DNA of 42,132 bases. It comes from Escherichia phage megetsur. Of this stretch, positions 4,916 through 18,828 are shown in pieces (the first letter of the stretch is position 1; every line of letters starts with the position of its first letter). Location of the stretch: the sequence record MN850608.1; one strand, written 5' to 3'. The position numbers were made by a program, and so were the translations under genes. Under the pieces are notes generated by a model. The model did not search any database. It saw only the letters and a list, made by a program, of their open reading frames with translations, and was not told where the DNA came from.

Positions 4916-5349
4916 AGCCAAAGTATAAAGTCGGGGATGAAATCGTAGGCGACGATGGCACTGGCACCCGGTCGGGTAAGCTGGGTATCATCGCGTGGGT
5001 TAACCCTGACCGCCGAGCGTGGGAACGTAGCGGGGAGACTCGTTACATCGTGAGCTGGATTGGTGAGCGCCTCAATGCGCAGCCGGATATCAGCCACTAC
5101 AAATCTGATTGGCTGGAGGACAACACCAGTCTGGTCAGCACGCCAGCAGAGAAGCGTGGTCGGTTCATGTGCTTGGTCGAAGGCAGTAATGCGCCGCCGA
5201 AGGTTGAGCACATCACTGAGCGCGAGGCGCGTGACGAAGCTGAACGTTTGGCAGAGCGGAACGGAGGTACTGTCCGTGTGCTGCAAGTTGTAGCCAGCGT
5301 GAAGATGAAGAAGAAGATTCAGTACATACCGGACTGGGATAACGAATGA
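4909..5349 (+). CDS. hypothetical protein (146 aa)
   Basis: ATG 4909 with GGAGG upstream. Confidence 0.5.
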   Translation: MVKPKYKVGDEIVGDDGTGTRSGKLGIIAWVNPDRRAWERSGETRYIVSWIGERLNAQPDISHYKSDWLEDNTSLVSTPAEKRGRFMCLVEGSNAPPKVEHITEREARDEAERLAERNGGTVRVLQVVASVKMKKKIQYIPDWDNE

Positions 5350-6056
5350 TGAAATCAGTGAGCAACGACGAGTGGCCGGAGCTGGCGAAGCGTCTGCCTG
5401 TAGGACAAAAGCGAAGGACGTTTCACAGTTGCTCGCGGTCATTCAACAAGACCAACTTCGAGTACGGTCGTGCACCGGATTACATCTGGTGCAAGTGCCA
5501 CCGCTGCGGGTACAGCCGCAAGCATGACTTAACCCATGCTGTGTACGTGCCGCCAGCGGAGGTGCAAGTGAAGGTGCCAACGGATGTGGTGCCTATCACT
5601 GAGGTGATTGCCAAGCAGCCGCGCTTGCTGCTGCCAGTGCTGGAGCGGGAGAACCTGATGCCGCACCTGTCTATCCTGACTGCAAGCCCAACGTATGGCA
5701 GGCTGTATCTGCCGGACGACACGGGCAGCTACTGTGGTCTGGACTACACGGGCAGGCAGTTCATCCCGTGGCGCTCGCCGCACAAGCACAGCTTGGCAAT
5801 GAAGGTCAGCCCTCGCGGTAATGCTGAGACCAACTGCCTCTGGATTTATGGTGAGGTGGACGAGTATCTCCAGCAGGTACGCGACGGCGGCAACTGCGCG
5901 TTCGTTCCCAACGTGGACGACTCAACGTTGCAGGCGCTGGTCAGTGTGACGCTGGCGTATGGATACAACCTCGTGGTTATCTGCCACCACCCAAGTGCTC
6001 AGCGCATACGCCGGGAGCTGCGTGTCGTTGGGCGTGTGCAAATCGTAGGAGAGTGA
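5346..6056 (+). CDS. putative DNA primase-like zinc-binding protein
   Basis: Cys/His cluster (HSCSRSF...CKCHRCG) and position immediately upstream of the helicase, as in phiKMV-like genomes; no TOPRIM motif verified. Confidence 0.35.
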   Translation: MMKSVSNDEWPELAKRLPVGQKRRTFHSCSRSFNKTNFEYGRAPDYIWCKCHRCGYSRKHDLTHAVYVPPAEVQVKVPTDVVPITEVIAKQPRLLLPVLERENLMPHLSILTASPTYGRLYLPDDTGSYCGLDYTGRQFIPWRSPHKHSLAMKVSPRGNAETNCLWIYGEVDEYLQQVRDGGNCAFVPNVDDSTLQALVSVTLAYGYNLVVICHHPSAQRIRRELRVVGRVQIVGE

Positions 6057-6057
6057 T

Positions 6058-7323
6058 GTGCTTGACAAGCTGTTGTTAACGGTGATGCGCGAGCGCGGGA
6101 AGTATAACTCCCTGCGACACGCCATCCCGGAAGATACCATGAGCCAGACCACGGGCTATATGCTGCGTGCTTACGGCTCATACTTTGACGCGTTCCCGGA
6201 CAGTGACTTCATTGACATTGAGACACTGGGTACGCACGTTCGTTTAAAGACAGGCAGCACGCCTGAACAGATGGCGGCCTTTGATTCCCTGTGTGCTCAG
6301 CTCAAAGAGTATCAGCCCACGAAGGAACAGAAGGAAGGCATCCTTGACCAGCTCGTAGAGTTGGACACCGCTGGCCGTGCGAACCTGCTGATGCAGAGGT
6401 ACGACAATGGTGAAGAACTGGATATTATCTATGAGCTTGGCCGTCTGGCTGAGGGCGCACGCCGCAGTCGGGGCCAATCATCAGTTACCGATTACGTCGA
6501 TGACGATGTGGTTGACATTATTAATCGCACTGATGATGACCAAGGTTTTAAGTTCGGTCTCATGTGTCTGCAAGATAGCGTACGCGTACTGCTTCCCGGC
6601 GACTCCGTTGCAATCGCTGCCCGACCTGACAGTGGGAAGACCAGCTTCATCGCGTTTAACCTTACGCGAATGGCGGCGACAGCGGCGAAGCTGTATCCGG
6701 GCAGACCAATCCTGTGGTTCAACAACGAAGGGCAGGGCATCAACATCATCCCGCGCATCTATCAGGCGGCGCTCAACTGTACGCTCCCGGAACTGAAAGA
6801 GCTGGGTGAGGACAGGAGCAAGCTGCACGCTGCGTATGCCAAGGCACTGGGTGCGCCAGCCAATGTGATTCGTGTGAAGGATATGCACGGCGCGACGCTG
6901 GCAAAAGCTGAGCAGGTTATCGAAGCGATGAACCCGTGCATCGTGGTGTGGGATATGCTTGCCAACTTCAAGCTGTCTGTGTCTGACCCGTCGAGCAACA
7001 AGGCGAGTCAGGTTGAGCAGCTATGGCAGGAGGTACGTGAGCTGGCAGTGCGACACAACTTCGTGTCACTGGCTACGGTTCAGGTATCAGCCGATGGTGC
7101 CGACGATATGTTCCCGGCGCTTGACGCATTGAAGGATTCCAAGACTGGTATCCAAGGGGCGACTGATGTTATCGTGATGCTCGGCAGCGTGGATGACCCA
7201 TCGCTGGCGGCGCGGCGCGGTGTCAGTACGCCGAAGAACAAACGCCAGATTGCTGGGCGTCCAAGCAACGTGCGGTCACAGGTACACTTCTTTGCTGACC
7301 GCTGCCAATATGAGGATATGTAA
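6058..7323 (+). CDS. replicative DNA helicase (DnaB / T7 gp4 helicase-domain family)
   Basis: Walker A AARPDSGKTSF; 421 aa; GTG start with AGGAGAG upstream. Confidence 0.8.
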   Translation: MLDKLLLTVMRERGKYNSLRHAIPEDTMSQTTGYMLRAYGSYFDAFPDSDFIDIETLGTHVRLKTGSTPEQMAAFDSLCAQLKEYQPTKEQKEGILDQLVELDTAGRANLLMQRYDNGEELDIIYELGRLAEGARRSRGQSSVTDYVDDDVVDIINRTDDDQGFKFGLMCLQDSVRVLLPGDSVAIAARPDSGKTSFIAFNLTRMAATAAKLYPGRPILWFNNEGQGINIIPRIYQAALNCTLPELKELGEDRSKLHAAYAKALGAPANVIRVKDMHGATLAKAEQVIEAMNPCIVVWDMLANFKLSVSDPSSNKASQVEQLWQEVRELAVRHNFVSLATVQVSADGADDMFPALDALKDSKTGIQGATDVIVMLGSVDDPSLAARRGVSTPKNKRQIAGRPSNVRSQVHFFADRCQYEDM

Positions 7324-7664: not shown

Positions 7665-7828
7665 AGGGGCGCAGCTATCGCCGTTGCTCTTGCGGCGGCA
7701 GCCTGCTGACTGAGCAGGTAAAGGGCAAGGCCACTGGCAAAGTGCTGGTGATTTATGAATGTGAAAAGTGTGGAGTAAAGCAGTATGGAAGAACGCACGT
7801 ATCGAGCGGCACCCTTAAACCAACGTGA
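7661..7828 (+). CDS. candidate small zinc-ribbon protein (55 aa), not in the ORF track
   Basis: GTG start overlapping the upstream stop (GTGA); translation VKGRSYRRCSCGGSLL...YECEKCGVKQYGRTH carries CxC...CxxC. Confidence 0.3.
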   Translation: MKGRSYRRCSCGGSLLTEQVKGKATGKVLVIYECEKCGVKQYGRTHVSSGTLKPT

Positions 7829-7976
7829 GCAGGCTACCATCCGGGCGCAGTACCGGAAGGGTGATGCGTTCCGTGGTGCTGAGGCGCTGGCTGAGCGATT
7901 CAATGTGCCGCCTGCTGATGTGGTGGCAGTAGTGAACTTCACTTATCGTAAGGGGAAACAGAAGCATGACAAGTAA
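7785..7976 (+). CDS. hypothetical small basic protein (63 aa)
   Basis: ATG 7785 with GGAG 9 nt upstream. Confidence 0.35.
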   Translation: MEERTYRAAPLNQREQATIRAQYRKGDAFRGAEALAERFNVPPADVVAVVNFTYRKGKQKHDK

Positions 7977-8649
7977 TGCCGAAGTCAAGCGCGTGTGGGC
8001 AGAAGATATCTGCCGTCTGCTGCAATCCGAAGAACTGAACTTCGTGGTTGCCGGGGGAGGGGCAAGGGATACCGCGCTGGGTGTTGAGCCGAAGGACTAT
8101 GACATTGTGGTCTTCGGTTGGGGTAGCGACATAAGCCGTGTGGTTGGCCGACTGGACTGGCTGGACTCCAGACTGGAGGACTATGCCAAGCAGCACAACC
8201 TGCCGTACGAGTTCATGCCGAGCTACCACGACGCGAGCGAAGGCGGCGACTTCGGTTCCCGTCTGTATGGTGTGTTCAAGTTAGGCCCGGTCGATATCAT
8301 CGTGAGCAAGTGTGGCTGTTGGTCACAGGTACTGGGTGAGTTCGACTTCAACCTGAACCAGTTCTACTTCCCGTCCAGTATCCCGCGATACTCCGGGCAG
8401 TACAGCCGAGACCCCGGCGAGTTCATGGCTTACCCGTATGAGCCGAAGCTGACCGCCGACGATGTGCAGTGGTATCCGGCGCTGGCCAGTCTGGTTGGAA
8501 GCTATGACGACCTGCTGACGCTCCGTGTCTGCCGACCGGATGCCAGCCTGAGTCGCATGGCCTACATGCTGGAGAAGCATGAGAAGCTGCTGCCGTCTAT
8601 TCAGGAGTACGTGAACAATAAGCCTGACCACTTAGGTGGCCAAGCGTAG
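7966..8649 (+). CDS. Pol-beta superfamily nucleotidyltransferase, CCA-adding enzyme / poly(A) polymerase head-domain-like
   Basis: VVAGGGARDTALGVEPKDYDIVVFG matches the GGxxRD...DxD signature at the N-terminus of E. coli CCA-adding enzyme; 227 aa, head domain only. Confidence 0.6.
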   Translation: MTSNAEVKRVWAEDICRLLQSEELNFVVAGGGARDTALGVEPKDYDIVVFGWGSDISRVVGRLDWLDSRLEDYAKQHNLPYEFMPSYHDASEGGDFGSRLYGVFKLGPVDIIVSKCGCWSQVLGEFDFNLNQFYFPSSIPRYSGQYSRDPGEFMAYPYEPKLTADDVQWYPALASLVGSYDDLLTLRVCRPDASLSRMAYMLEKHEKLLPSIQEYVNNKPDHLGGQA

Positions 8650-8659
8650 CGGAGGACTG

Positions 8660-11125
8660 ATGGCAATTAGAGCACAGGTGATTGACGTTGAGACCGAGAA
8701 CCACGAGTGGTATGGGGAGCTGGCATCGCCGCGCTGCCCGGATAACTACGTGGTGATGCAGGGCCAGCGTGACTGTGTGCTGACCAAGGATGGCTGGGTG
8801 TTCTACGAGCGCGAGGAATATCGGTACAGTTCGAGAGAGGATTGGTTGCAGAACAAGAGCCTGCACCTGCATCCCGACACGAACATTCTGGTAGCCCACA
8901 ACGCGCCGTATGAATTGAGTTGGTGGTTCGAGCATTACGGTGACGAGTTCATCGCCTTCCTCAAACGAGGTGGCCGTGTATTCTGTACGGCGTATGCTGA
9001 GTATCTGCTGACGCACCAACAATCCCAGTACCCATCCTTGAACGAGACAGCACCGAAGTATGGTGGTACTCACAAGGTGGATGCAGTCAAGGCAATGTGG
9101 GAGTCGGGATACCTGACCAGCCAGATTGACCCTGAGCTGCTGAGCGAATATCTGTCCGGGCCGTCCGGCGATATTGAGAACACGACCAAGCTGTTCGTTG
9201 GTCAGTGGGCTGAGCTGACGAAGCAGGGCATGTTGCCAATGGCACTGACCCGGTTCGAAGGTATGCTCATGTGGGCGTACATGATGCACGCTGGTCTGCA
9301 CGTTGACCGCGAGGTTGCCGAGCGCAACCGCCGTGAGTTGCAAGATGCAATCAGTGGGCTGACTGATACGCTGCTGAGTTACCTGCCAGCCGACATGCCA
9401 CAGGAAGCGCGTGACCAGTTCAAGTTCACGTCAGCTTACCACATGAGTGCGTTCGTGTTCGGCGGCGTGATGAAGTACAAGGCGCGAGTCGAGCGCCGGG
9501 ATGGGGATGGCAATCTCATTTACGTCAAGGTGGATGCACCACTGTTCAAGCGTGGCAAGGACAAGTGGGTCAAGCATACCAACGAGTGCGAGTGGGATGC
9601 CGAGACCGGGCTATGGTATGACCCGGTTGAGAAGGTACACCAGACCATCTACACCAGTGGGAAGAACAAGGGTGCGCCCAAGTTCGAGAAGCTGGCAACG
9701 GATGAAGTGGATACCAAGTGGGGTGAGGTGCTGTTCCGAATGCCGGGCCTCCTGCGTGTGCAGGACAAACGGGCGAAGGAGATTGCAGATAACCTCGAAT
9801 GGGAAGACCCGAAGCGACCGGGCGAATACCTACGGCGCACGGGTGACTGGGTTGGTAAGCGCAGGCTTGCCGATGGCAGTCCGGTATTCAGTACGGCGGG
9901 TGAGGTGCTGGACATTCTGGCAGCGCGTAAGATTCCCGGCGTGGTGGAGATTGCCGACCGAGCCAAGGCACAGAAAGACCTCGGCACTTACTACCTGAGC
10001 GAGACGTTCGATGAAGATGGGAACGTGACTGGCCAGTCGGGGATGATGCAGTTCATCCAGCCGGACGGTATCGTACACCACACCATCAACATGACCGCGA
10101 CGGAGACGACGCGCCTATCATCGGCGCGACCTAACAGTCAGAACTTGCCACGTAAAGGCACGAGTAAAGTTAAGCAGATGTTCACCTCCCGCTTTGGTGA
10201 AGGTGGCCGCATCGTTGAGGCTGACTACTCGGCACTGGAAGTGGTGGGGCTGGCCGGGTTCAGCAAGGATAAGAACCTGATTCGTGCATTGCTCGACGGT
10301 ATCGACATGCACTGTATGCGTCTGTCAGCTCAGCTCAACGAGCCATACGAGGACGTGCTTAAGAAGTGCAAGGATGAATCCCATCCTGACCATGCACGAT
10401 ATAGTCAGATGCGTACTGACATTAAGCCGAAGGCGTTCTCATATCAGTATGGTGCAACAGCGCGAGGCATTGCGTACTCGACTGGTTGCTCTGAGGAAGA
10501 AGCTCAAGCGTTCATCGACAACGAGAAGGGTCTGTTCCCGGAAGTTGAAGAATGGTTCGACTCGGTTATCTTCCCAGCCGTAGAGAAAAGTGGACAGAGC
10601 AATGTGTTCAAGGAGCAGGACGAGAACGGAAGATGGCAGGTGTATCGCCGTGGTCACTTCCGGTCGCCGGGTGGAACTTGTTATTCATTCCGTCAGTACG
10701 AGAAATGGAACAAGGCGGCGCGTGCTCACCTGATGGAATACAAACCAACTCAGATGCGTAACTATCCGATTCAGGGTGAGACCGCATTTTGGGTACAGGG
10801 AATCGGTGGCCTGCTGTTCCGCTGGCTGCTATCGAACGACTTCTTTGGTGGGCGTGTGGTTCCCATCAACCAAGTGCATGACGCATTCTATTTCGACATT
10901 GCACCTGACTGCCCTCACGAGTTCTTCGTTGGACTCAAGGCAATCATGGAGAGCATCCCGGAATACTATAACCACGTATGGCCAGAGTATAACCTGACAG
11001 TGCCGTTCCCGGCAGAGGTGGAAGCAGGGCCAAGCATGTACGAGAAGCACCACGTAGAGACGACAGCCGATGAAGTGCTGGAGTTTAAGAGACAATTCCT
11101 GACGAGTAAGGGTATCGCATTATGA
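8660..11125 (+). CDS. DNA polymerase, family A (T7 gp5-like)
   Basis: Motif A DYSALEV, motif B RTDIKPKAFSYQYG, motif C VHDA; alternative GTG start at 8636. Confidence 0.93.
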   Translation: MAIRAQVIDVETENHEWYGELASPRCPDNYVVMQGQRDCVLTKDGWVFYEREEYRYSSREDWLQNKSLHLHPDTNILVAHNAPYELSWWFEHYGDEFIAFLKRGGRVFCTAYAEYLLTHQQSQYPSLNETAPKYGGTHKVDAVKAMWESGYLTSQIDPELLSEYLSGPSGDIENTTKLFVGQWAELTKQGMLPMALTRFEGMLMWAYMMHAGLHVDREVAERNRRELQDAISGLTDTLLSYLPADMPQEARDQFKFTSAYHMSAFVFGGVMKYKARVERRDGDGNLIYVKVDAPLFKRGKDKWVKHTNECEWDAETGLWYDPVEKVHQTIYTSGKNKGAPKFEKLATDEVDTKWGEVLFRMPGLLRVQDKRAKEIADNLEWEDPKRPGEYLRRTGDWVGKRRLADGSPVFSTAGEVLDILAARKIPGVVEIADRAKAQKDLGTYYLSETFDEDGNVTGQSGMMQFIQPDGIVHHTINMTATETTRLSSARPNSQNLPRKGTSKVKQMFTSRFGEGGRIVEADYSALEVVGLAGFSKDKNLIRALLDGIDMHCMRLSAQLNEPYEDVLKKCKDESHPDHARYSQMRTDIKPKAFSYQYGATARGIAYSTGCSEEEAQAFIDNEKGLFPEVEEWFDSVIFPAVEKSGQSNVFKEQDENGRWQVYRRGHFRSPGGTCYSFRQYEKWNKAARAHLMEYKPTQMRNYPIQGETAFWVQGIGGLLFRWLLSNDFFGGRVVPINQVHDAFYFDIAPDCPHEFFVGLKAIMESIPEYYNHVWPEYNLTVPFPAEVEAGPSMYEKHHVETTADEVLEFKRQFLTSKGIAL

Positions 11126-12021
11126 CCGCATCTGTATTGAACCGCATGAACTCCATCGTCGAACAGTATGTTGACGAGGAAGAACTTGACTTTAACGAAG
11201 CCACGTCCGGTGGTGGTAAGCTGCTGCCGGAAGGTAAGGCACTGGCGCGACTGGTTGGCTACATTGAAGTGGGGCCGAGCGTGACCAAGCAGGCACCGGA
11301 CAAACCGCCTGTCAATAAGTTCTTCCTCCAGTTCGCCCTGTGGGGCAAGGCCAAGAACGGCGAGACTTACCATGAAGTTGTCAATGGTAAGATGGTGCCG
11401 GGCAAGGTGCGCACGCAGTTCATCGCTGTGAAGAAAGACCTGAACAGCAAGTCCGGCGCTTACAAACTGTTCAAGCGTATGAACCCGGATAAGACTGCGA
11501 AGCACTTCGCGCAGCTTCTGAACCACACCTTCATCGTTCCGATTATCCACAACGAATCGGGCGAGGGTGAGAACAAGAAGGTGTACGCCAACATCGACCT
11601 TGAGAACATCATGCTCGCGGTTGACCCGGTGACTGACCAGCCGTACCCGGTGCCGGAGGTTGAGGACGAGACGCTGTTCAAGCTGTTCCTGTGGAACCGT
11701 CCGACCAAGGAAGACTGGGAATCCCTGTACATCGAAGGCAAGAACGACGATGGCAAATCCAAGAACTGGATTCAGGACAAGCTGCTGGAATCTCCTGAGT
11801 TCCCCGGCTCTCCGCTTGACCTGCTGCTGAACGGCGCTGGTGCTGGCTCGGCAATCGCTGAGCTGCCGGAGCTGGGCGACGTGGGCCAGCCGGAGGAAGT
11901 GGCTGAGGTTAAGCAGGAAGTGCAGGAGCTGGCAACGGCTGGCGCGGCTGACAAGTCGGCAGCATCCAAGCCTGAGCCGGACGTGACTGGCGATGCTGAC
12001 TTCGGCCTGCCGAGTCTGTAA
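11122..12021 (+). CDS. hypothetical protein with acidic C-terminal tail
   Basis: 299 aa; C-terminus ...DADFGLPSL loosely recalls acidic-tail ssDNA-binding proteins (speculative). Confidence 0.5.
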   Translation: MTASVLNRMNSIVEQYVDEEELDFNEATSGGGKLLPEGKALARLVGYIEVGPSVTKQAPDKPPVNKFFLQFALWGKAKNGETYHEVVNGKMVPGKVRTQFIAVKKDLNSKSGAYKLFKRMNPDKTAKHFAQLLNHTFIVPIIHNESGEGENKKVYANIDLENIMLAVDPVTDQPYPVPEVEDETLFKLFLWNRPTKEDWESLYIEGKNDDGKSKNWIQDKLLESPEFPGSPLDLLLNGAGAGSAIAELPELGDVGQPEEVAEVKQEVQELATAGAADKSAASKPEPDVTGDADFGLPSL

Positions 12022-12056
12022 CTGACAATGGCACAGGGATGTGCCGTGGAGGATAC

Positions 12057-12254
12057 ATGCGAGAGTTAGAGCCGGGCGAGGTTATCGTTTACGACGAGCC
12101 TCGCGACATGTGCATGGTAATCAAAAGCCGCAGCGAGAAAGTTGAAATGAGCTACGACATGTTCTTCACTTTGAAGAAGATGATTGAGAACATGCTGATG
12201 GAGAGAGTGAATGAGCAGATTGAAACGCTTGCTTCACAATGCCGAGGAACTTGA
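12057..12254 (+). CDS. hypothetical small protein (65 aa)
   Basis: ATG 12057 after GGAGG; hairpin 12029-12044 upstream. Confidence 0.35.
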   Translation: MRELEPGEVIVYDEPRDMCMVIKSRSEKVEMSYDMFFTLKKMIENMLMERVNEQIETLASQCRGT

Positions 12255-13185
12255 TGACCAGTTTGATGGTTACGTGTCTGGTCGTATTCTGCTGTGTGAT
12301 GCTGACTCGACAGTCTACGTCGCGGCAGCAACCACGAAGAACATCGAGACGGCGAAGACACGATTCTGTTCCGGGGTACTGACTGCCAAGTTCCTCGCCA
12401 ATGCTCAGTCAGTTCGTATCGAGTTGACCGCTGCGGAGTGTACGAAAGCTGGACGGTACAAGCTGCGCGGGGCCAAGCTGTACCAAGGCAACCGAGACAA
12501 AGACCGCAAGCCCGGTCTGGTCGAGCCGTTGCGTAAAGCAATTGGCCGGAACATGTTCAACGTTCCTGATGGTGAGGACTGGTACGTTCACCTGAACTTT
12601 GAGTTCGAGGCTGACGACACCTTAATCATGGACGCATGGACGATTGGCATTAACGATGCAGTAATCTACAGCGCGGATAAAGACCTACGCTGCTGGCCGG
12701 GCAGGTTCCTCGACCCGTACGACAACAAGGTACTGGAGCCGTGCAAAGGTGTTGGCCGTCTGTGGTGGCACGAGACCAAGAGTGACAAGTCGCTGATTGG
12801 TCATGGGCCTATCTTCTTTTGGGCGCAGATGCTGATGGGTGACAGCGCCGACAACATCGCTGGTGTCAAGAAGATTGGTAAGCAGACAGCTTACGATATG
12901 CTGGTCGATTATCAGGAGACTGATGACGAGTCGGCTGTGGCTGAGTTCGTGCTCCGTGAGTACATGGTGCGCGACCAGAACCCATGGCCAGAAGCAGTGG
13001 CGTTGTGGCTGTACCGCACGCCGACCTACTCATTCGCAGCCCACCTCAATACGCTGACCTTGAGCAAGGAGCTGCGTGTCTGGCTGCATAAGAAATTGAA
13101 TGAGGAATGGTATGCGGAAAGTGACTGGCGCGACCTTGTTGCAGATGCGGAAGAATGCGATGGGCTGTCCTTGCCCACTCTGTAA
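12211..13185 (+). CDS. 5'-3' exonuclease (T7 gene 6 / FEN family)
   Basis: ILLCDADS, QGNRDKDRKP, EADDTLIMD, YSADKDLRCWP, GDSADNIAGV align with conserved blocks of T7 gp6. Confidence 0.85.
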   Translation: MSRLKRLLHNAEELDDQFDGYVSGRILLCDADSTVYVAAATTKNIETAKTRFCSGVLTAKFLANAQSVRIELTAAECTKAGRYKLRGAKLYQGNRDKDRKPGLVEPLRKAIGRNMFNVPDGEDWYVHLNFEFEADDTLIMDAWTIGINDAVIYSADKDLRCWPGRFLDPYDNKVLEPCKGVGRLWWHETKSDKSLIGHGPIFFWAQMLMGDSADNIAGVKKIGKQTAYDMLVDYQETDDESAVAEFVLREYMVRDQNPWPEAVALWLYRTPTYSFAAHLNTLTLSKELRVWLHKKLNEEWYAESDWRDLVADAEECDGLSLPTL

Positions 13186-13492
13186 CGAGCCGATGGTAGA
13201 CCTCAAGCTCATGGTGGTTGACCACGACCATGTGAGTGGGGAGATTCGCGGTGTCATCTGCCGCTGGTGTAATGCTCAGCTCGGCAAGGTAGAGAACTCT
13301 GCCAACCGAGCGAAGCGCCAGCGCACAGTTGATGACTGGCTGGACAGCGCCATCGAGTGGCGACGTAAGCAACACACTGGTCTGATGTACCCAACGCACA
13401 AGACCGAGGCAGAGAAGAAAGCGGCGACAGCCGAGAGACGTAAGAAGGCGGCAGCCGCGAAAGCGCGAGCCTTAATCACTAAGGGGAAATGA
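13160..13492 (+). CDS. recombination endonuclease VII-like (His-Me finger) Holliday-junction resolvase
   Basis: CPCPLC...DHDH...CRWCN; start 13160 chosen for GGAAG upstream; alternative starts at 13100, 13112 and 13145. Confidence 0.7.
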   Translation: MGCPCPLCNEPMVDLKLMVVDHDHVSGEIRGVICRWCNAQLGKVENSANRAKRQRTVDDWLDSAIEWRRKQHTGLMYPTHKTEAEKKAATAERRKKAAAAKARALITKGK

Positions 13493-14616
13493 TGACCAAG
13501 TTAACTAATCACCAACTCAAAGAAGACATTGCCGAAGGGCTTGGCACCAAGGCCATTGCTGAGAAGCATGACATGACCGAGAGCGCCATTCGATACCGGA
13601 AGCGCCAGCTTGCCAAGAGCGGCTGGAGTCCTGAGCACGACATGACGAAGGAAGTGCCGGAGCCGTATGCGGTGAAGGGTACGTCCACGCTGTACGATAA
13701 GGACGGCAACGTTGTCATGCAGTGGGTGAAGACGGCACTCGACCGTGAGCAGGAGCTGGCGCTGCTGCAAGAAGCTGTCGATGCAATTAGCGAGAGCATC
13801 ACCCCGGAAGCTGCCCGACCGTACGCCGGGGGCGCGGCACCTGCTGAGCTGCTGAACCTGTTCGTGCTGACTGACTACCACCTCGGTATGCTGGCGTGGG
13901 CAGAGGAAACTGGTGACGACTGGGATATGAAGATTGCGGAAGACCTGCTGGTCAAGTGGTTCTCGGCAGCGATTGCCAGTGCGCCGCCAGCACAGGTTGC
14001 CATCTTCGGCCAGCTCGGTGACTTCCTGCACTGGGATGGGTTGGATGCAGTAACGCCATCGAGTGGGCATGTGCTTGATGCTGACACGCGATTCCAGAAA
14101 CTGGTGCGTGTGGCTATCCGGGCGCAGCGCCGCATCATTGGTATGCTGCTGGAGAAGTTCCCGCAGGTTCACGTAGTGTGTGCCGAGGGCAACCACGACA
14201 TGGCCAGCTCAATCTGGATGCGTGAGCTGCTGCATGTACTGTACGCCGACGAGCCGCGTGTCACTGTTGACCGCAGCCCTGACCCGTACTACTGCTATGA
14301 GCATGGCGAGACGGCGCTGTTCTTCCACCATGGTCACAAGCGTAAGGCAGAACAACTGGAGACTGTACTGGTCGCCAAGTTCCGCGAAGTGTATGGCCGA
14401 ACCAAACATGCGTATGCACACGTTGGCCACCTGCATCACAAGAAGGTGCTGGAGTCTGGTGTCATGATTGTCGAGCAGCACCGTACGCTGGCGGCGAAGG
14501 ATGCCTATGCCTCTCGTGGTGGCTGGCTGAGTGAGCGCAGCGCGAGCGTGATTACTTATCATGCCCGGTACGGTGAGGTCGCACGATTCACCATTAGCCC
14601 GGAGATGTTGGAGTGA
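13489..14616 (+). CDS. calcineurin-like metallophosphoesterase with N-terminal HTH-like segment
   Basis: GDFLHWDG, GNHD and GHLHH motifs; N-terminal KAIAEKHDMTESAIRYRKRQL. Confidence 0.6.
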   Translation: MMTKLTNHQLKEDIAEGLGTKAIAEKHDMTESAIRYRKRQLAKSGWSPEHDMTKEVPEPYAVKGTSTLYDKDGNVVMQWVKTALDREQELALLQEAVDAISESITPEAARPYAGGAAPAELLNLFVLTDYHLGMLAWAEETGDDWDMKIAEDLLVKWFSAAIASAPPAQVAIFGQLGDFLHWDGLDAVTPSSGHVLDADTRFQKLVRVAIRAQRRIIGMLLEKFPQVHVVCAEGNHDMASSIWMRELLHVLYADEPRVTVDRSPDPYYCYEHGETALFFHHGHKRKAEQLETVLVAKFREVYGRTKHAYAHVGHLHHKKVLESGVMIVEQHRTLAAKDAYASRGGWLSERSASVITYHARYGEVARFTISPEMLE

Positions 14617-14837
14617 CAAGAACACTGTACCAAGAAGATGTGGTGCAGCTCAAAGAGGATGGCCTTTCCATTGAGTGGGAGGCCAACACTCAGGTCGAGC
14701 TGTATAAAGATGGCACCGTCTGCATTTCGCAGGACGGTGAGGAAGTCTGGTTGCCTTGGGCATATGTCCGGGATATTATTTTCGCTCTTGAGGAAGCACA
14801 CGATGCACATGAAAGACACCGTAGTAGTAGACCTTGA
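14613..14837 (+). CDS. hypothetical acidic protein (74 aa)
   Basis: GTG start overlapping the upstream stop. Confidence 0.4.
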   Translation: MTRTLYQEDVVQLKEDGLSIEWEANTQVELYKDGTVCISQDGEEVWLPWAYVRDIIFALEEAHDAHERHRSSRP

Positions 14838-15330
14838 CGGCACGCTGGCCGATGGCCGTTGGCGTTTACACCTGCTGCCTCCACCGGAGCGTCGGCACCT
14901 TGATGAAGCGTGGGCCGAGTTCAACTTGGCTGGCGCTGACGACCCTGCGTTTCAGGACACGATTGATATTGTGAACGCTCTGGCCCTCACGTATCGCATT
15001 ATCATCCTGACCGGACGCGGAGCCGTGGCCCGTGAAGTAACCGAGCAGTGGCTCGACGAAGCTGGTGTGGTTTACGACAAACTAATCATGAGAGAGATTG
15101 GCGACTGCCGTAAAGACACAGAGATGAAGCTGGCGGCGCTGGAGGACATTGGCATTGAGAACATCGTGTGTGCTTTCGACGACCTGCCGCACATCGTTGA
15201 CTTCATGCGTGGCCTCGGCATCACGGTCTATGAAGTGACTCGCTATGAGGATAACCATGAGTATGTTCATGCCAATGCTAAATACGATGGCGCTGATTCT
15301 AAGGTCGATGGAGGTAAGGCGAATGGGTAA
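14803..15330 (+). CDS. HAD-superfamily phosphatase (polynucleotide 3'-phosphatase-like)
   Basis: DLDGTLAD motif near the N-terminus; ATG 14803 with GAGG 9 nt upstream. Confidence 0.55.
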   Translation: MHMKDTVVVDLDGTLADGRWRLHLLPPPERRHLDEAWAEFNLAGADDPAFQDTIDIVNALALTYRIIILTGRGAVAREVTEQWLDEAGVVYDKLIMREIGDCRKDTEMKLAALEDIGIENIVCAFDDLPHIVDFMRGLGITVYEVTRYEDNHEYVHANAKYDGADSKVDGGKANG

Positions 15331-15901
15331 GAAAGGTCAGAAGTTTATCTTAGACCCGGCACGCAACTGGGGTACTGGCACGCTGCTGAGCGACATTGCT
15401 GAGCAAGGTATCATCCTGACGTACGACGAACCGTACGATGTGCCGAATGACAGCCGCGATTACTACACCTGCGTGAAGGATGGCAAGACCCACACTCTGG
15501 TACTGGAGCCATTCGAGGTGAAAGAAGTTGAGACTGCATTCATCCCGGTTGACCCGTACGACCCGGCCAGTGATGTTGAGGTGGCCGTGGCCAAGAGTGC
15601 CGGGCCGGGAGGTATGAAGTTCGACGGCGGCAAGCCCCGCATGTCACTGCTGTTCGATGGCTGCCCGAATGCACTGGAGGCTGTAGCCAGCGTGCTCACC
15701 TTCGGCGCTGAGAAGTATGCAGCCCACTCGTGGCAGACTGTGCCGGAAGGTGAGGAACGCTACAAGTCAGCACTGCTCCGTCACCTGACGGCGGTGGGTA
15801 AGGGTGAGGAACTGGATAGCGAATCCAACCTGCACCATCTGGCGCACGCTGCGTGCAATGCGCTGTTCATTCTGGAACTCGAATTAAGGAAACGCAAATG
15901 A
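15323..15901 (+). CDS. hypothetical protein; C-terminal all-alpha domain possibly nucleotide pyrophosphohydrolase-like
   Basis: ATG 15323 with GGAGG 7 nt upstream; the domain assignment is from memory and tentative. Confidence 0.4.
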   Translation: MGKKGQKFILDPARNWGTGTLLSDIAEQGIILTYDEPYDVPNDSRDYYTCVKDGKTHTLVLEPFEVKEVETAFIPVDPYDPASDVEVAVAKSAGPGGMKFDGGKPRMSLLFDGCPNALEAVASVLTFGAEKYAAHSWQTVPEGEERYKSALLRHLTAVGKGEELDSESNLHHLAHAACNALFILELELRKRK

Positions 15902-16395: not shown

Positions 16396-18828
16396 GTGGA
16401 TTTACTTGCAGAGCAGATTCGACTTGAAGAAGAAGCGCGAGCCAGACACCGCGAGGGCTGGCTGGATAATATCAAAGAGGCGATGGCCAGTGGCCGCGCC
16501 GGGTCGGTGCCGTTGCTCCAGCGTATGATGGTTGAGGCTTATCCTCTGGTCGAAGCTGCGATGCAAGAAACCCTGAGCGAAACGACCCGTGGATATGGTG
16601 CGCAGTACCGGACGTACATGCGTGAGATTGGCACCAAAGCGTGTGCCTCTCTCGCACTGAGCATGGCGGTGTCCGGTGCTGCGTCGGAGCAGGCGGTACT
16701 GAGTCTGCTCAAGAGCATGGGCAAGGCACTGATGGCTGAGGTGGTGTATCTCCGGGCGAAGCAGACCGGGCCACAGCAGGCGGCGTACATGGAGCGCGTT
16801 AAGCAGGACGTGAAGAAGTCTCGCTCGAAGTCAGCGAACCACGTCTACAACAAAGCGCGTGCGTCGGCGGCGAACGTTGGGGTAGAGATTGATGTGCTGC
16901 CGCAGCGTGCGCTGATTACCATTGGCAAGCTGATGATGAAGTGCGTCGAGCCAACTGGTCTGGTGTCCACGATTCGCGTCGGCGGCAACCAGCGCCAGCG
17001 CGGTACGGCACACTTCGCACTGCACGAAGATGTGCTGGCTACGATGAACGACTGGCTGGACATGCCGCGTGCTGATGGCATGTGCTGCCCACCGCTGATT
17101 ATCCCACCGAAGCAGATTGCCCCGAACGGTCGCAGCGGTATGTGGCATTCCGATGGGCAGGCAGCGATGTACCGGGTCATGAGTCGCATGAACCACAAAG
17201 GGTATCGTGCATTGAACGTTGACCCGACCCCCGTTATAGAGCCGTGTATGATGCTCAGCAGCGTTCCGTACCGAGTTAACCCAATGGTACTGGAGTTCCT
17301 GCGAACGAACCGTACAGGCGTTATGGGGCTGCCTGTGCCACCCCGTGAGCCTACACTTCCGTTCACCATCCCCGCTGGTGTGAGCTTTGCACAGTACATC
17401 AGCAAGTTCCCACCAGAGATGCAGCAGCAGATGGATGCCGAAGCTCACGAGTACAAGGTGAAGACTCGCTTGTATTACAATGAGTTGCGTAAGTTCACGT
17501 CGCAGATGCTGGCGTTGAATGGTGCAGTCAAAGAGGCAGACAGGTATGCGCAGTACGATAGGATTTATCTCCCGACTTACGCCGATACGCGGGGCCGAAT
17601 TTATTATTCTTCGACCCTTAACCCTCAGTCTATCGACGCGGTGCGAGCGCTGCTTGAGCTTGCGGAACCAGTGGCTCTCGGAACTGAGGGGCTGTTCTGG
17701 CTCAAGGTTCATGTTGCGAATTGTTTCGGATATGACGCAACAGACTTCGACGACCGGGCGGCGTGGACGGACAAGACACTCCCCCGACTACGTGAGGCGT
17801 GCCGTCTTCCAGAGGCATTTGATTCGTTCTGGTCAGAAGCCGATAGCCCTATCAGCGCGTGGGCTGCCTCTGTTGAACTCATTCGCGCTATCGACTCAGG
17901 AAGTCCTGAGACTTATCCCTGCCGAGTGGTTACGCAATGGGACGCTACCTGTTCAGGATTACAGCACCTCAGTGCGATGCTACGAGATGAAGTTGGCGGT
18001 GCTGCTGTCAATCTTATCAATAGCGTGGGAAGAAAAGCAGACATATATCTCAAGACGGCAGCAGCGGCGATGCAGGCTCTTGAAGATAGTGAGGCGCAGT
18101 CACCGACGCAGATGGGTACGTGGCTTGTTTCAATCGGCATTGTCCGGGCGATGGCTAAGAAGCCAGTGATGACCTACGTGTACGGGGCAACCCGGCACGG
18201 TATGGTGGACTACTACTGCCTGTATCTGCGAGAGAACCGGGTCAAGCTGCCGGACGGCAAGAGCCTGCTGGAGTGTGCGCAGTTCATCGCAGAGTTCATG
18301 TGGAATGCAATCCCTCGCGTTGTGCCGAAGGCGGCAGAGCTGATGGCATGGTTGCAGGCTATCGCGGTTGAGGCGGCAGCCAACGGCGAGTACGTGGAAA
18401 TCATTGCACCATCAGGGTTGCGGGTGGTTAACCTGTATCAAGCCAGCAAGGAGACGATGCTCAACAACATCAACCTCATGGGTATCCACAGCATTAAGCT
18501 GCGCGAGTATCTGGACAAGCCGGACGGTAGGAAGTGTGCCGCTGCGATTGCTCCGAATTTCGTACACGCCATGGATGCCAGCCACATGATGAAGGTGTTG
18601 TGGGAGATGTGGAATAACGGGGTGTACATGGTGTCCATCCACGACTCGTTCGGGGTGGCGGCTGCACATGCCGGGTTACTCCACAAGGTCATTCGTGAAA
18701 AGTTCGTACAGATGTATGAGCAACATGACCCAATTCAACAACTTGCTGTACGATACAATGCTGTTGCACCTGAACGGGGCAATCTGGATATCCAGCTTGT
18801 GAAACAATCAAGCAAGTTTTTCTGCTGA
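16396..18828 (+). CDS. single-subunit DNA-dependent RNA polymerase (T7-type)
   Basis: DATCSGLQHLSAMLRDEVGGAAVNL and HDSFGV match T7 RNAP catalytic motifs; GTG start with AAGGAG upstream. Confidence 0.95.
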   Translation: MDLLAEQIRLEEEARARHREGWLDNIKEAMASGRAGSVPLLQRMMVEAYPLVEAAMQETLSETTRGYGAQYRTYMREIGTKACASLALSMAVSGAASEQAVLSLLKSMGKALMAEVVYLRAKQTGPQQAAYMERVKQDVKKSRSKSANHVYNKARASAANVGVEIDVLPQRALITIGKLMMKCVEPTGLVSTIRVGGNQRQRGTAHFALHEDVLATMNDWLDMPRADGMCCPPLIIPPKQIAPNGRSGMWHSDGQAAMYRVMSRMNHKGYRALNVDPTPVIEPCMMLSSVPYRVNPMVLEFLRTNRTGVMGLPVPPREPTLPFTIPAGVSFAQYISKFPPEMQQQMDAEAHEYKVKTRLYYNELRKFTSQMLALNGAVKEADRYAQYDRIYLPTYADTRGRIYYSSTLNPQSIDAVRALLELAEPVALGTEGLFWLKVHVANCFGYDATDFDDRAAWTDKTLPRLREACRLPEAFDSFWSEADSPISAWAASVELIRAIDSGSPETYPCRVVTQWDATCSGLQHLSAMLRDEVGGAAVNLINSVGRKADIYLKTAAAAMQALEDSEAQSPTQMGTWLVSIGIVRAMAKKPVMTYVYGATRHGMVDYYCLYLRENRVKLPDGKSLLECAQFIAEFMWNAIPRVVPKAAELMAWLQAIAVEAAANGEYVEIIAPSGLRVVNLYQASKETMLNNINLMGIHSIKLREYLDKPDGRKCAAAIAPNFVHAMDASHMMKVLWEMWNNGVYMVSIHDSFGVAAAHAGLLHKVIREKFVQMYEQHDPIQQLAVRYNAVAPERGNLDIQLVKQSSKFFC

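Follow-up and report, generated by a model that had tools for sequence, protein, structure and literature searches.

What does a protein that carries the catalytic head of a CCA-adding enzyme, and hardly anything more, do among the DNA replication genes of a bacteriophage? The question is raised by a gene at positions 7966-8649 of Escherichia phage megetsur (sequence record MN850608.1), whose product, a nucleotidyltransferase, is called NTase here. The window, that is, the whole stretch of 42,132 nucleotides analysed, is a near-complete Bonnellvirus-type coliphage genome (Autographivirales, phiKMV-like supergroup) with all genes on the plus strand. [quoted passage not shown] We lean towards the view that NTase is an enzyme that adds ribonucleotides to the 3' end of a nucleic acid independently of a template, with short RNA tailing as the favoured activity, and that it would not be a faithful CCA-adding enzyme.

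NTase matches the PHROG 1614 "nucleotidyltransferase" profile over residues 2-224 (E=3e-43). Searched against the PDB as a single sequence, it reaches E. coli poly(A) polymerase (PAP) with an E of ~1; its best PDB and NCBIfam match is of the PcnB type and covers residues 12-50, and NCBIfam gave only PcnB/CCA N-terminal matches far below threshold. With PF01743, the PolyA_pol head, it scores 14.8 bits against a gathering cut-off of 23, over residues 28-55 only, so that the homology to class II enzymes is detectable only at the profile-profile or fold level. A profile of 71 NTase family sequences searched against PDB sequences placed CCA-adding enzymes and PAP at the top (E=7e-7 to 1e-5). Alignment by hhalign of the family with a class II profile, in which E. 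coli Cca and PcnB were combined with six tRNA nucleotidyltransferases of phages, gave a probability of 95.5% (E=1.4e-8, 113 columns); it spans the N-terminal helix and motif A, continues up to FDFNLNQ/RRDfTINA (motif B), and ends there. A preliminary description of the locus had proposed a comparison with PF01743, which falls below threshold for the single sequence.

The AlphaFold (AF2) model of NTase has a mean predicted local distance difference test score (pLDDT) of 87.8 and a predicted template modelling score of 0.86. Its top Foldseek matches in the PDB are the CCA-adding enzymes 1ou5 (human TRNT1), 1vfg, 3h37 (T. maritima), 5hc9 and 1miv (B. stearothermophilus), together with E. coli PAP 3aql, and the ~135-155 columns aligned in the matches of lower root-mean-square deviation correspond to the head domain. 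This fold is shared with class II CCA enzymes, E. coli Cca among them, and with the head of poly(A) polymerase I, PcnB (3aqk/3aql); MenT1, ANT(2'')-Ia and Tas1 match far more weakly, with E of ~1e-3 to 1e-2. The family-profile search of the PDB, hhalign and Foldseek therefore agree with the CCA-enzyme or PAP type of Pol-beta head first proposed for this protein, and superposition on CCA heads, suggested as a check at that time, puts CCA-adding enzymes first. A precomputed PF26128 assignment accompanies several homologues; a local Pfam search gave none for five, and a literature search for it gave nothing.

Conservation figures come from an alignment of 222 family sequences, and the elements of the protein lie in the window as follows.

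8047-8106, plus strand: motif A, residues 28-47 (VAGGGARDTALGVEPKDYDI), with the GG-x-x-RD NTP-binding turn and the metal-binding D44-x-D46
8290-8301, plus strand: strand V109-D110-I-I with the third catalytic carboxylate (h[DE]h); the AF2 model has a strand at residues 109-114
8341-8364, plus strand: motif B-like F126-D-F-N-L-N-Q-F133, aligned by hhalign to RRDfTINA, the ribose-binding element
8413-8520, plus strand: insertion of the Bonnellvirus clade, residues ~150-185, with a column occupancy of 0.13-0.16, most members being without it
8521-8616, plus strand: C-terminal element L186..[RK]190-x-[DE]192-x-[ST]194-x-x-R197-x-x-[KYR]-M-x-x-K204, with a predicted helix at residues 195-217

Motif A aligns to the class II pattern GGxVRD...PKDxD, with G30-G31-A-R34-D35 encoded by nucleotides 8053-8070 and D44-Y-D46 by nucleotides 8095-8103, and VAGGGARDTALGVEPKDYD aligns to the class II consensus GGxVRDxxLG...DxD. 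The Pol-beta superfamily signatures A29-G30-G31, D44-Y-D46-I and V109-D110-I are each present in 99-100% of the 222 members. Residues G30, G31, R34, D44, D46 and R197 are invariant (222/222); conservation is 98-99% for D35 (99%), D110 (220/222), D127 (221/222) and N131 (218/222), and 91-95% for P42, F126, N129, Q132 and G144. The two-metal centre formed by D44, D46 and D110 is intact, which argues that family members are active enzymes, and NTase itself is most likely one. In motif B, the two Arg of RRDxxxNA are replaced by x-F in the family, while D127 and N131 are kept.

Motif B is followed by a short linker and a single C-terminal helix carrying R197. By inspection, the distances of this helix to motif B and to the hydrophobic "LL..V" strand before it are such that it may be what is left of the motif D helix (LLRxV....EDPLRxLR), in which R197 may stand for the templating Arg and the Ser/Thr for the templating Asp. 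The isolated C-terminal part gave no significant hhalign match (P=0.12), and the alignment selects motif E, whereas the spacing favours motif D. In hhalign of the family, the neck motif D (EDxxR), the amino-acid template for CTP/ATP selection, was undetectable, as were the neck motifs C and E, nothing being aligned past motif B. The body and tail with which CCA enzymes (~350-450 amino acids in full) bind the acceptor/T-arm of tRNA, and the HD domain, are missing, and the AF2 model consists of the head and one helix, with a pLDDT of 65-73 in residues 141-160, below most of the model. The absence of body and HD domains had been claimed beforehand, and the end of the alignment after motif B and the length of 227 amino acids, against 412 for E. 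coli Cca, bear it out. Compared with class II CCA enzymes, NTase thus has about half the length and lacks the RR of motif B, motifs C, D and E, neck, body, tail and HD domain, but it shares with them motif A (GGxxRD...PKDxD) and the D-x-x-x-N core of motif B, and it has a classical h-D-h strand for the third carboxylate (D110).

A protein of this make-up would be a template-independent transferase that, in the replication phase of infection, attaches ribonucleotides to a nucleic-acid 3'-OH, and in this way short untemplated tails would be added to RNA 3' ends, such as tRNA-like ends, short primers or host transcripts. Exact CCA addition would not be expected, because the EDxxR of motif D is missing, as are motifs C and E and the body and tail that position the tRNA. 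Compared with PcnB, NTase lacks the neck and body and the C-terminal RNA-binding region (PF12627), and we found no evidence of processive A-tailing. Unregulated tailing would account for the toxicity in E. coli of Gp22, a family member from phage fHe-Kpn01, which may be likened to the toxicity of PcnB on over-production.

The gene itself is well delimited by its translation signals and its neighbours.

7966-8649, plus strand: NTase coding sequence, ATG to TAG, 227 amino acids; PHROG 1614 family, class II-type nucleotidyltransferase head alone
7950-7956, plus strand: putative Shine-Dalgarno-like AAGGGGA, purine-rich, 9 nt 5' of the NTase ATG, as read from the sequence
7785-7976, plus strand: small open reading frame (ORF) 5' of NTase, 63 amino acids, PHROG 31596, function unknown, overlapping the NTase start by 11 nt

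Ten nucleotides separate the NTase stop codon from the probable ATG of the DNA polymerase gene at 8660, and a GGAGG lies at 8652-8656. The 63-residue PHROG 31596 ORF is kept only in Bonnellvirus and LIMEzero-type loci in our locus comparison. NTase shares 99.6% identity with its counterparts in Escherichia phage Ec1-ASingh and in the Enterobacter phages SS-2025 and BHUENT7, and 93% with that of the annotated phage LF82-23. The ratio of nonsynonymous to synonymous substitution rates (dN/dS) is ~0.15 against two relatives with 96% and 84% amino-acid identity, and the gene is under purifying selection. The 227-residue ORF with a GGxxRD...DxD signature noticed in the preliminary description is therefore present and, by its PHROG match, homologues, dN/dS, conservation and AF2 model, more than a chance reading frame.

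The family to which NTase belongs is already annotated and described in the literature, and in this respect the window adds nothing new. A homologue was found in 192 phage records, and an exhaustive profile search gave 394 representative clusters at E<=1e-3; among the matches listed, nearly all are 145-292 amino acids long, and the median length over the 222 aligned sequences is 189. Compared with other PHROG 1614 members, NTase, at 227 amino acids, carries the insertion of 36 residues (~150-185), lies directly 5' of the DNA polymerase gene and belongs to a genome without a ligase. LKD16 (phiKMV genus) gp16 (hhalign 98.3%, E=1.7e-14), LIMEzero ORF22 (39% identity to NTase, Foldseek TM 0.74-0.83), fHe-Kpn01 Gp22 (full-length, hhalign 99.2%, E=2.5e-19) and gp28 of Pectobacterium phage PP47 with gp24 of Q19 are all members of this one family of small Autographivirales NTases, and have the invariant residues and the replication-cluster position in common with NTase; the 'TRNT' of Pectobacterium phages belongs here too. 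NTase fits the family by its full-length profile match and by its place in the primase/helicase-polymerase cluster of a podophage genome in the range of ~40-47 kb. RefSeq gives the name "nucleotidyltransferase" to the homologues of J8-65, Lidtsur, LIMEzero, PP99 and numerous other phages. Dozens of predicted family structures are available in BFVD, that of LKD16 among them, from phages of Pantoea, Dickeya, Pectobacterium, Yersinia, Providencia, Proteus, Aeromonas, Vibrio, Acinetobacter, Ralstonia, Caulobacter and Pseudomonas.

A scan with the motif pattern across genomes of 185,579 species confirmed 4 loci, on three Pseudomonas contigs (two of P. fildesensis and one of P. fontis) and in one Desulfobacteraceae metagenome-assembled genome. 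Both P. fildesensis contigs duplicate T7-like loci of IMG/VR (L016 and L026), which suggests that the matches in bacterial genomes come from integrated or contaminating T7-like phages; the family is almost entirely restricted to phages. The canonical tRNA nucleotidyltransferases of full length in phages are a set apart, with 474 records, and among the 40 of these that were listed the named complete phages have genomes of 78-542 kb and none is T7- or phiKMV-like. A protein of 1455 amino acids, P0169, was considered as a fused member and rejected, as it consists of four tandem canonical PolyA_pol heads and so falls outside the small phage family; it also has three PolyA_pol RNA-binding domains, an unusual multi-copy class II nucleotidyltransferase.

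Evseev et al. 2020 discuss the family as a "tRNA-nucleotidyltransferase" that they count in 37 of the 46 Autographiviridae phages of Pectobacterium and, beyond these, in 60 of more than 500, with a tree rooted on LIMEzero (PMC7693777), and the family is also treated in PMC8472413, PMC9145550 and PMC10142737. Spruit et al. 2020 showed that fHe-Kpn01 Gp22 (182 amino acids) is toxic in E. coli, and found it to resemble CCA-adding enzymes by HHpred and Phyre2 (PMC7291057). Our literature search found no biochemical study of any family member.

The preliminary description had placed the gene where core replication functions are expected, and this holds both in the window and in its relatives. The main replication genes around NTase, named by annotation of the 93%-identical relative LF82-23, are these.

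5346-6056, plus strand: DnaG-type primase, identified also by synteny across the compared loci, in a close-packed, same-strand run of replication genes
6058-7323, plus strand: DnaB-like helicase, likewise identified by synteny and in the same run
8660-11125, plus strand: phiKMV-type family A DNA polymerase, with GGAGG before its ATG

The gene order is primase, helicase, three small ORFs, NTase and DNA polymerase. The DNA polymerase ORF as called mechanically begins at a GTG at 8636, inside the NTase gene; its true start is likely the ATG at 8660, as in LF82-23. For comparison, genes of the window and T7-type genes were mapped on 47 IMG/VR loci with family members, nearly all of them contigs of 39-47 kb, and two annotated phages were added, which gave the following arrangements.

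Bonnellvirus/LIMEzero type (window, L005-L011): helicase, small ORFs, NTase, DNA polymerase
PP99 type (L012-L015): gp4-like primase-helicase, NTase, DNA polymerase
T7-like Pseudomonas phages (~26 loci): lysozyme, NTase, gp4
T7-like variants (L045, L049): gp4, other genes, NTase, DNA polymerase
fHe-Yen3-01 type (L027): ligase, NTase, DNA polymerase
phiKMV-like loci (L031, L037, L038, L047): NTase, primase, helicase, ligase, DNA polymerase
Drulisvirus fHe-Kpn01: DNA polymerase, with NTase directly downstream
LKD16 (phiKMV genus): helicase gp15, NTase gp16, ligase gp17

Of the 45 loci that could be scored, 36 have NTase no more than 300 bp upstream of a gene for a primase-helicase or a DNA polymerase, with a median gap of 47 bp, and the association with the replication cluster holds over differing partner genes and gene orders despite the shared ancestry of the loci.

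Downstream of the DNA polymerase gene follow genes for a PHROG-862 protein, a 5'-3' exonuclease, endonuclease VII, a metallophosphoesterase and a PNKP-type HAD phosphatase, and further on a protein with a dGTP/dATP diphosphohydrolase domain, a Q-like protein and the single-subunit RNA polymerase at 16396-18828. The genes around NTase are a DNA replication and DNA-end-processing set. The PHROG-862 protein (11122-12021, 299 amino acids), directly 3' of the DNA polymerase gene, is kept with the polymerase in phiKMV-like loci; its acidic tail (...DADFGLPSL) recalls the C-termini of single-stranded DNA-binding proteins, and it has no Pfam or PDB sequence match. The endonuclease VII ORF, called mechanically at 13100-13492, overlaps the 5'-3' exonuclease gene (12211-13185) by 86 nt, and its true start is probably further 3', the LF82-23 gene being 333 nt long against 393 nt for the ORF. 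The product of 15245-15901 carries the N-terminal domain of a dATP/dGTP diphosphohydrolase (PF18909, E=5.7e-33) and may act on the nucleotide pool; LKD16 gp25, annotated as DUF5664 and lying after the metallophosphoesterase-like gp24 and before the RNA polymerase gene, occupies the same position.

The metallophosphoesterase gene at 13489-14616 encodes 375 amino acids with an N-terminal helix-turn-helix and a calcineurin-type phosphoesterase domain, and belongs to PHROG 704, "DNA repair exonuclease", within a very large family (>4,900 matches). No sequence relative of it was detectable in the PDB; the solved folds nearest to its predicted structure (pLDDT 78.5) are those of Mre11 nucleases and of the PolD DP1 exonuclease (E of ~1e-7 to 1e-5), in agreement with the PHROG label. 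The HAD protein at 14803-15330 is a stand-alone PNKP-type 3'-phosphatase domain (PF25109, E=1.2e-14) without a kinase domain, whose nearest solved relatives are Pnkp1 of the bacterial RNA-repair complex (4xrp, E=1.2e-7) and T4 PNK. Both genes accompany NTase in 9 of the 47 loci, only in those of the Bonnellvirus/LIMEzero and PP99 types.

As had been claimed, the window contains no detectable ATP-dependent ligase: a profile of 31 Autographivirales ligases searched against the six-frame translation gave a best E of 1, and KxDG occurs in unrelated contexts only. The phage presumably uses host LigA for ligation. The further suggestion that NTase is linked to the missing ligase finds no support in its relatives: 31 of the 47 loci with a family member also have an ATP-dependent ligase, and so does LKD16, where NTase stands directly between helicase and ligase; LKD16 and fHe-Yen3-01-type phages have a ligase beside the NTase gene, whereas this genome has none. 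This co-occurrence indicates that NTase holds a conserved slot of its own and is no substitute for a ligase. An unusual DNA ligase was also considered for the protein itself and rejected on the grounds of its Pol-beta fold, the lack of KxDG in NTase and the co-occurrence of the family with true ligases. A substrate encoded by the phage was looked for and rejected, with no tRNA genes found in the window by ARAGORN and no RNA families by Rfam.

Several observations weigh against an untemplated RNA-tailing enzyme. The acceptor, the donor nucleotide and the product are all inferred. Ribose discrimination could differ, as the Arg pair of motif B is not conserved, and PF01743 is not reached by the single sequence. 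The persistent siting beside DNA replication and repair genes would suit a DNA-end or primer substrate equally well or better, while the synteny counts on which it rests are inflated by common ancestry. Toxicity of Gp22 on over-expression is non-specific evidence.

Among the alternatives, processing of DNA ends or primers fares best, and we regard it as a possible, if unlikely, function. NTase would then extend DNA 3' ends, nicks or RNA primers by a single nucleotide or a few, as an analogue of the ribonucleotide-adding polymerase module of LigD in bacterial non-homologous end joining (NHEJ) or of family X polymerases, with a phage or host ligase, the PNKP-type 3'-phosphatase and the Mre11-like nuclease as candidate partners. 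All characterised class II enzymes that we know of act on RNA 3' ends with NTPs, which counts against such a function. The location of NTase in the primase/helicase-polymerase cluster in several architectures points towards it, as does the presence in the window of the 5'-3' exonuclease, endonuclease VII, the Mre11-like metallophosphoesterase and the 3'-phosphatase downstream. So does phiKMV biology: LKD16 gp16 lies directly 5' of ligase gp17, the replication genes of the PhiKMV gp14-17/gp19 locus have been treated in one analysis as co-regulated, and PhiKMV ligase gp17 has been implicated in the repair of Cas12a and EcoRI breaks with NHEJ-like scars (bioRxiv 10.64898/2026.09.21.753257). However, gp16 is unmentioned in that preprint, in most T7-like carriers the ligase is ~5 kb distant and there is neither a metallophosphoesterase gene nor a HAD gene, and by the ligase profile this phage has no ATP-dependent ligase of its own.

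A related idea, which we think rather unlikely, is that NTase is a template-independent 3'-end transferase coupled to the replisome, which would build, extend or repair short 3' ends for phage DNA replication or break repair. Its substrates could be, for example, oligoribonucleotide primers or tRNA-like ...CCA ends, or it could add ribonucleotides at DNA breaks before an NHEJ-like ligation of the sort reported for the PhiKMV ligase locus. The T7 primers pppACCA and ACCC resemble the 3' end of tRNA. T7 can reportedly use ACCA-3' ends of tRNAs as primers for DNA synthesis (Zhu et al. 2012, cited through PMC11506809), a result that also bears on the processing of DNA ends or primers considered above. 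If true, a transferase of this kind would be a new accessory activity of the replication machinery of T7 and phiKMV types.

That NTase is a genuine minimal enzyme of tRNA CCA addition or repair, restoring tRNA 3' ends damaged by infection or by host toxins, appears doubtful to us. Its nearest relatives in sequence and fold are CCA-adding enzymes, R197 could, by its spacing, be what remains of the templating Arg in EDxxR, and such a function is the usual database annotation, followed by the genome papers PMC7693777, PMC8472413 and PMC10142737. Yet motifs C, D (EDxxR) and E are undetectable, and of the body and tail domains, which grip the tRNA elbow, neither is present; tRNA genes are missing from the phage and its host already has Cca, while genuine full-length CCA enzymes belong, among the 40 of 474 records listed, to the other set of phages with large genomes. 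Of the tRNA 3'-end repair proposed in the preliminary description, the CCA-type head stands, whereas faithful repair is doubtful without motif D and the body and tail.

Nucleotidylation of a protein or small molecule, or the synthesis or modification of a nucleotide signal, for counter-defence or host takeover (as in MNT, ANT or MenT-like enzymes), is in our view quite improbable. The size of NTase is one that minimal NTases typically have, its weaker fold matches include MenT1, ANT(2'')-Ia and Tas1, and its homologue Gp22 is toxic. MenT/AbiEii (DUF1814) toxins, which modify tRNA 3' ends, have a similar size, a Pol-beta-type core and a weak fold match (E of ~1e-3), and are toxic when expressed alone, a likeness to the NTase family. 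But NTase has no PADLOC or DUF1814 match and no antitoxin, and lies in the replication cluster of a lytic phage, and the signatures of motifs A and B are those of RNA-specific class II enzymes and not of MNT, CD-NTase or DUF1814. When NTase and two relatives were searched with the PADLOC models for CD-NTase, MNT and MenT types, none matched at E<=1; this result, with NCBIfam matches that are only weak and of the PcnB/CCA N-terminal type, rules out membership of those families. NTase differs from the defence NTases as a whole (CD-NTase, MNT/HEPN, MenT/AbiEii) in having no profile match, no adjoining HEPN or antitoxin partner gene, and a family restricted to phages.

Last, the split RNA-end healing pathway of the preliminary description, in which NTase, the metallophosphoesterase and the HAD phosphatase would together repair cleaved tRNA, can be given hardly any credence: the three genes do lie on one strand within ~7.4 kb (7966-15330) of the replication cluster, and the HAD protein has Pnkp1 as its nearest solved relative, but both partner genes are missing from all ~30 T7-like loci among the 38 other loci, the metallophosphoesterase is nearest to DNA nucleases, the phage has no tRNA genes, a 5'-kinase domain is lacking, and only the PNKP-type phosphatase domain was found of an RNA repair set of the T4 Pnkp-Rnl or bacterial Pnkp-Hen1 type, with 5'-kinase, 2',3'-phosphoesterase and RNA ligase, the DNA-ligase profile being without a match in the window (RNA ligases were not searched for separately) and no ligase being annotated in LF82-23 (35.6 of 42.4 kb examined).

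Untemplated tailing of 3' ends by a class II head would concern a few hundred T7-like and phiKMV-like phages that carry NTase, many of them candidates for therapy against Klebsiella, Pseudomonas, Acinetobacter and Pectobacterium. The label "tRNA nucleotidyltransferase", routinely given to these proteins without an assay, is probably too specific, as only the catalytic head is present and the parts that confer CCA specificity are gone. Given a homologue that is toxic in E. coli, the identity of the substrate could expose a mechanism of host takeover or an accessory mechanism of phage replication.

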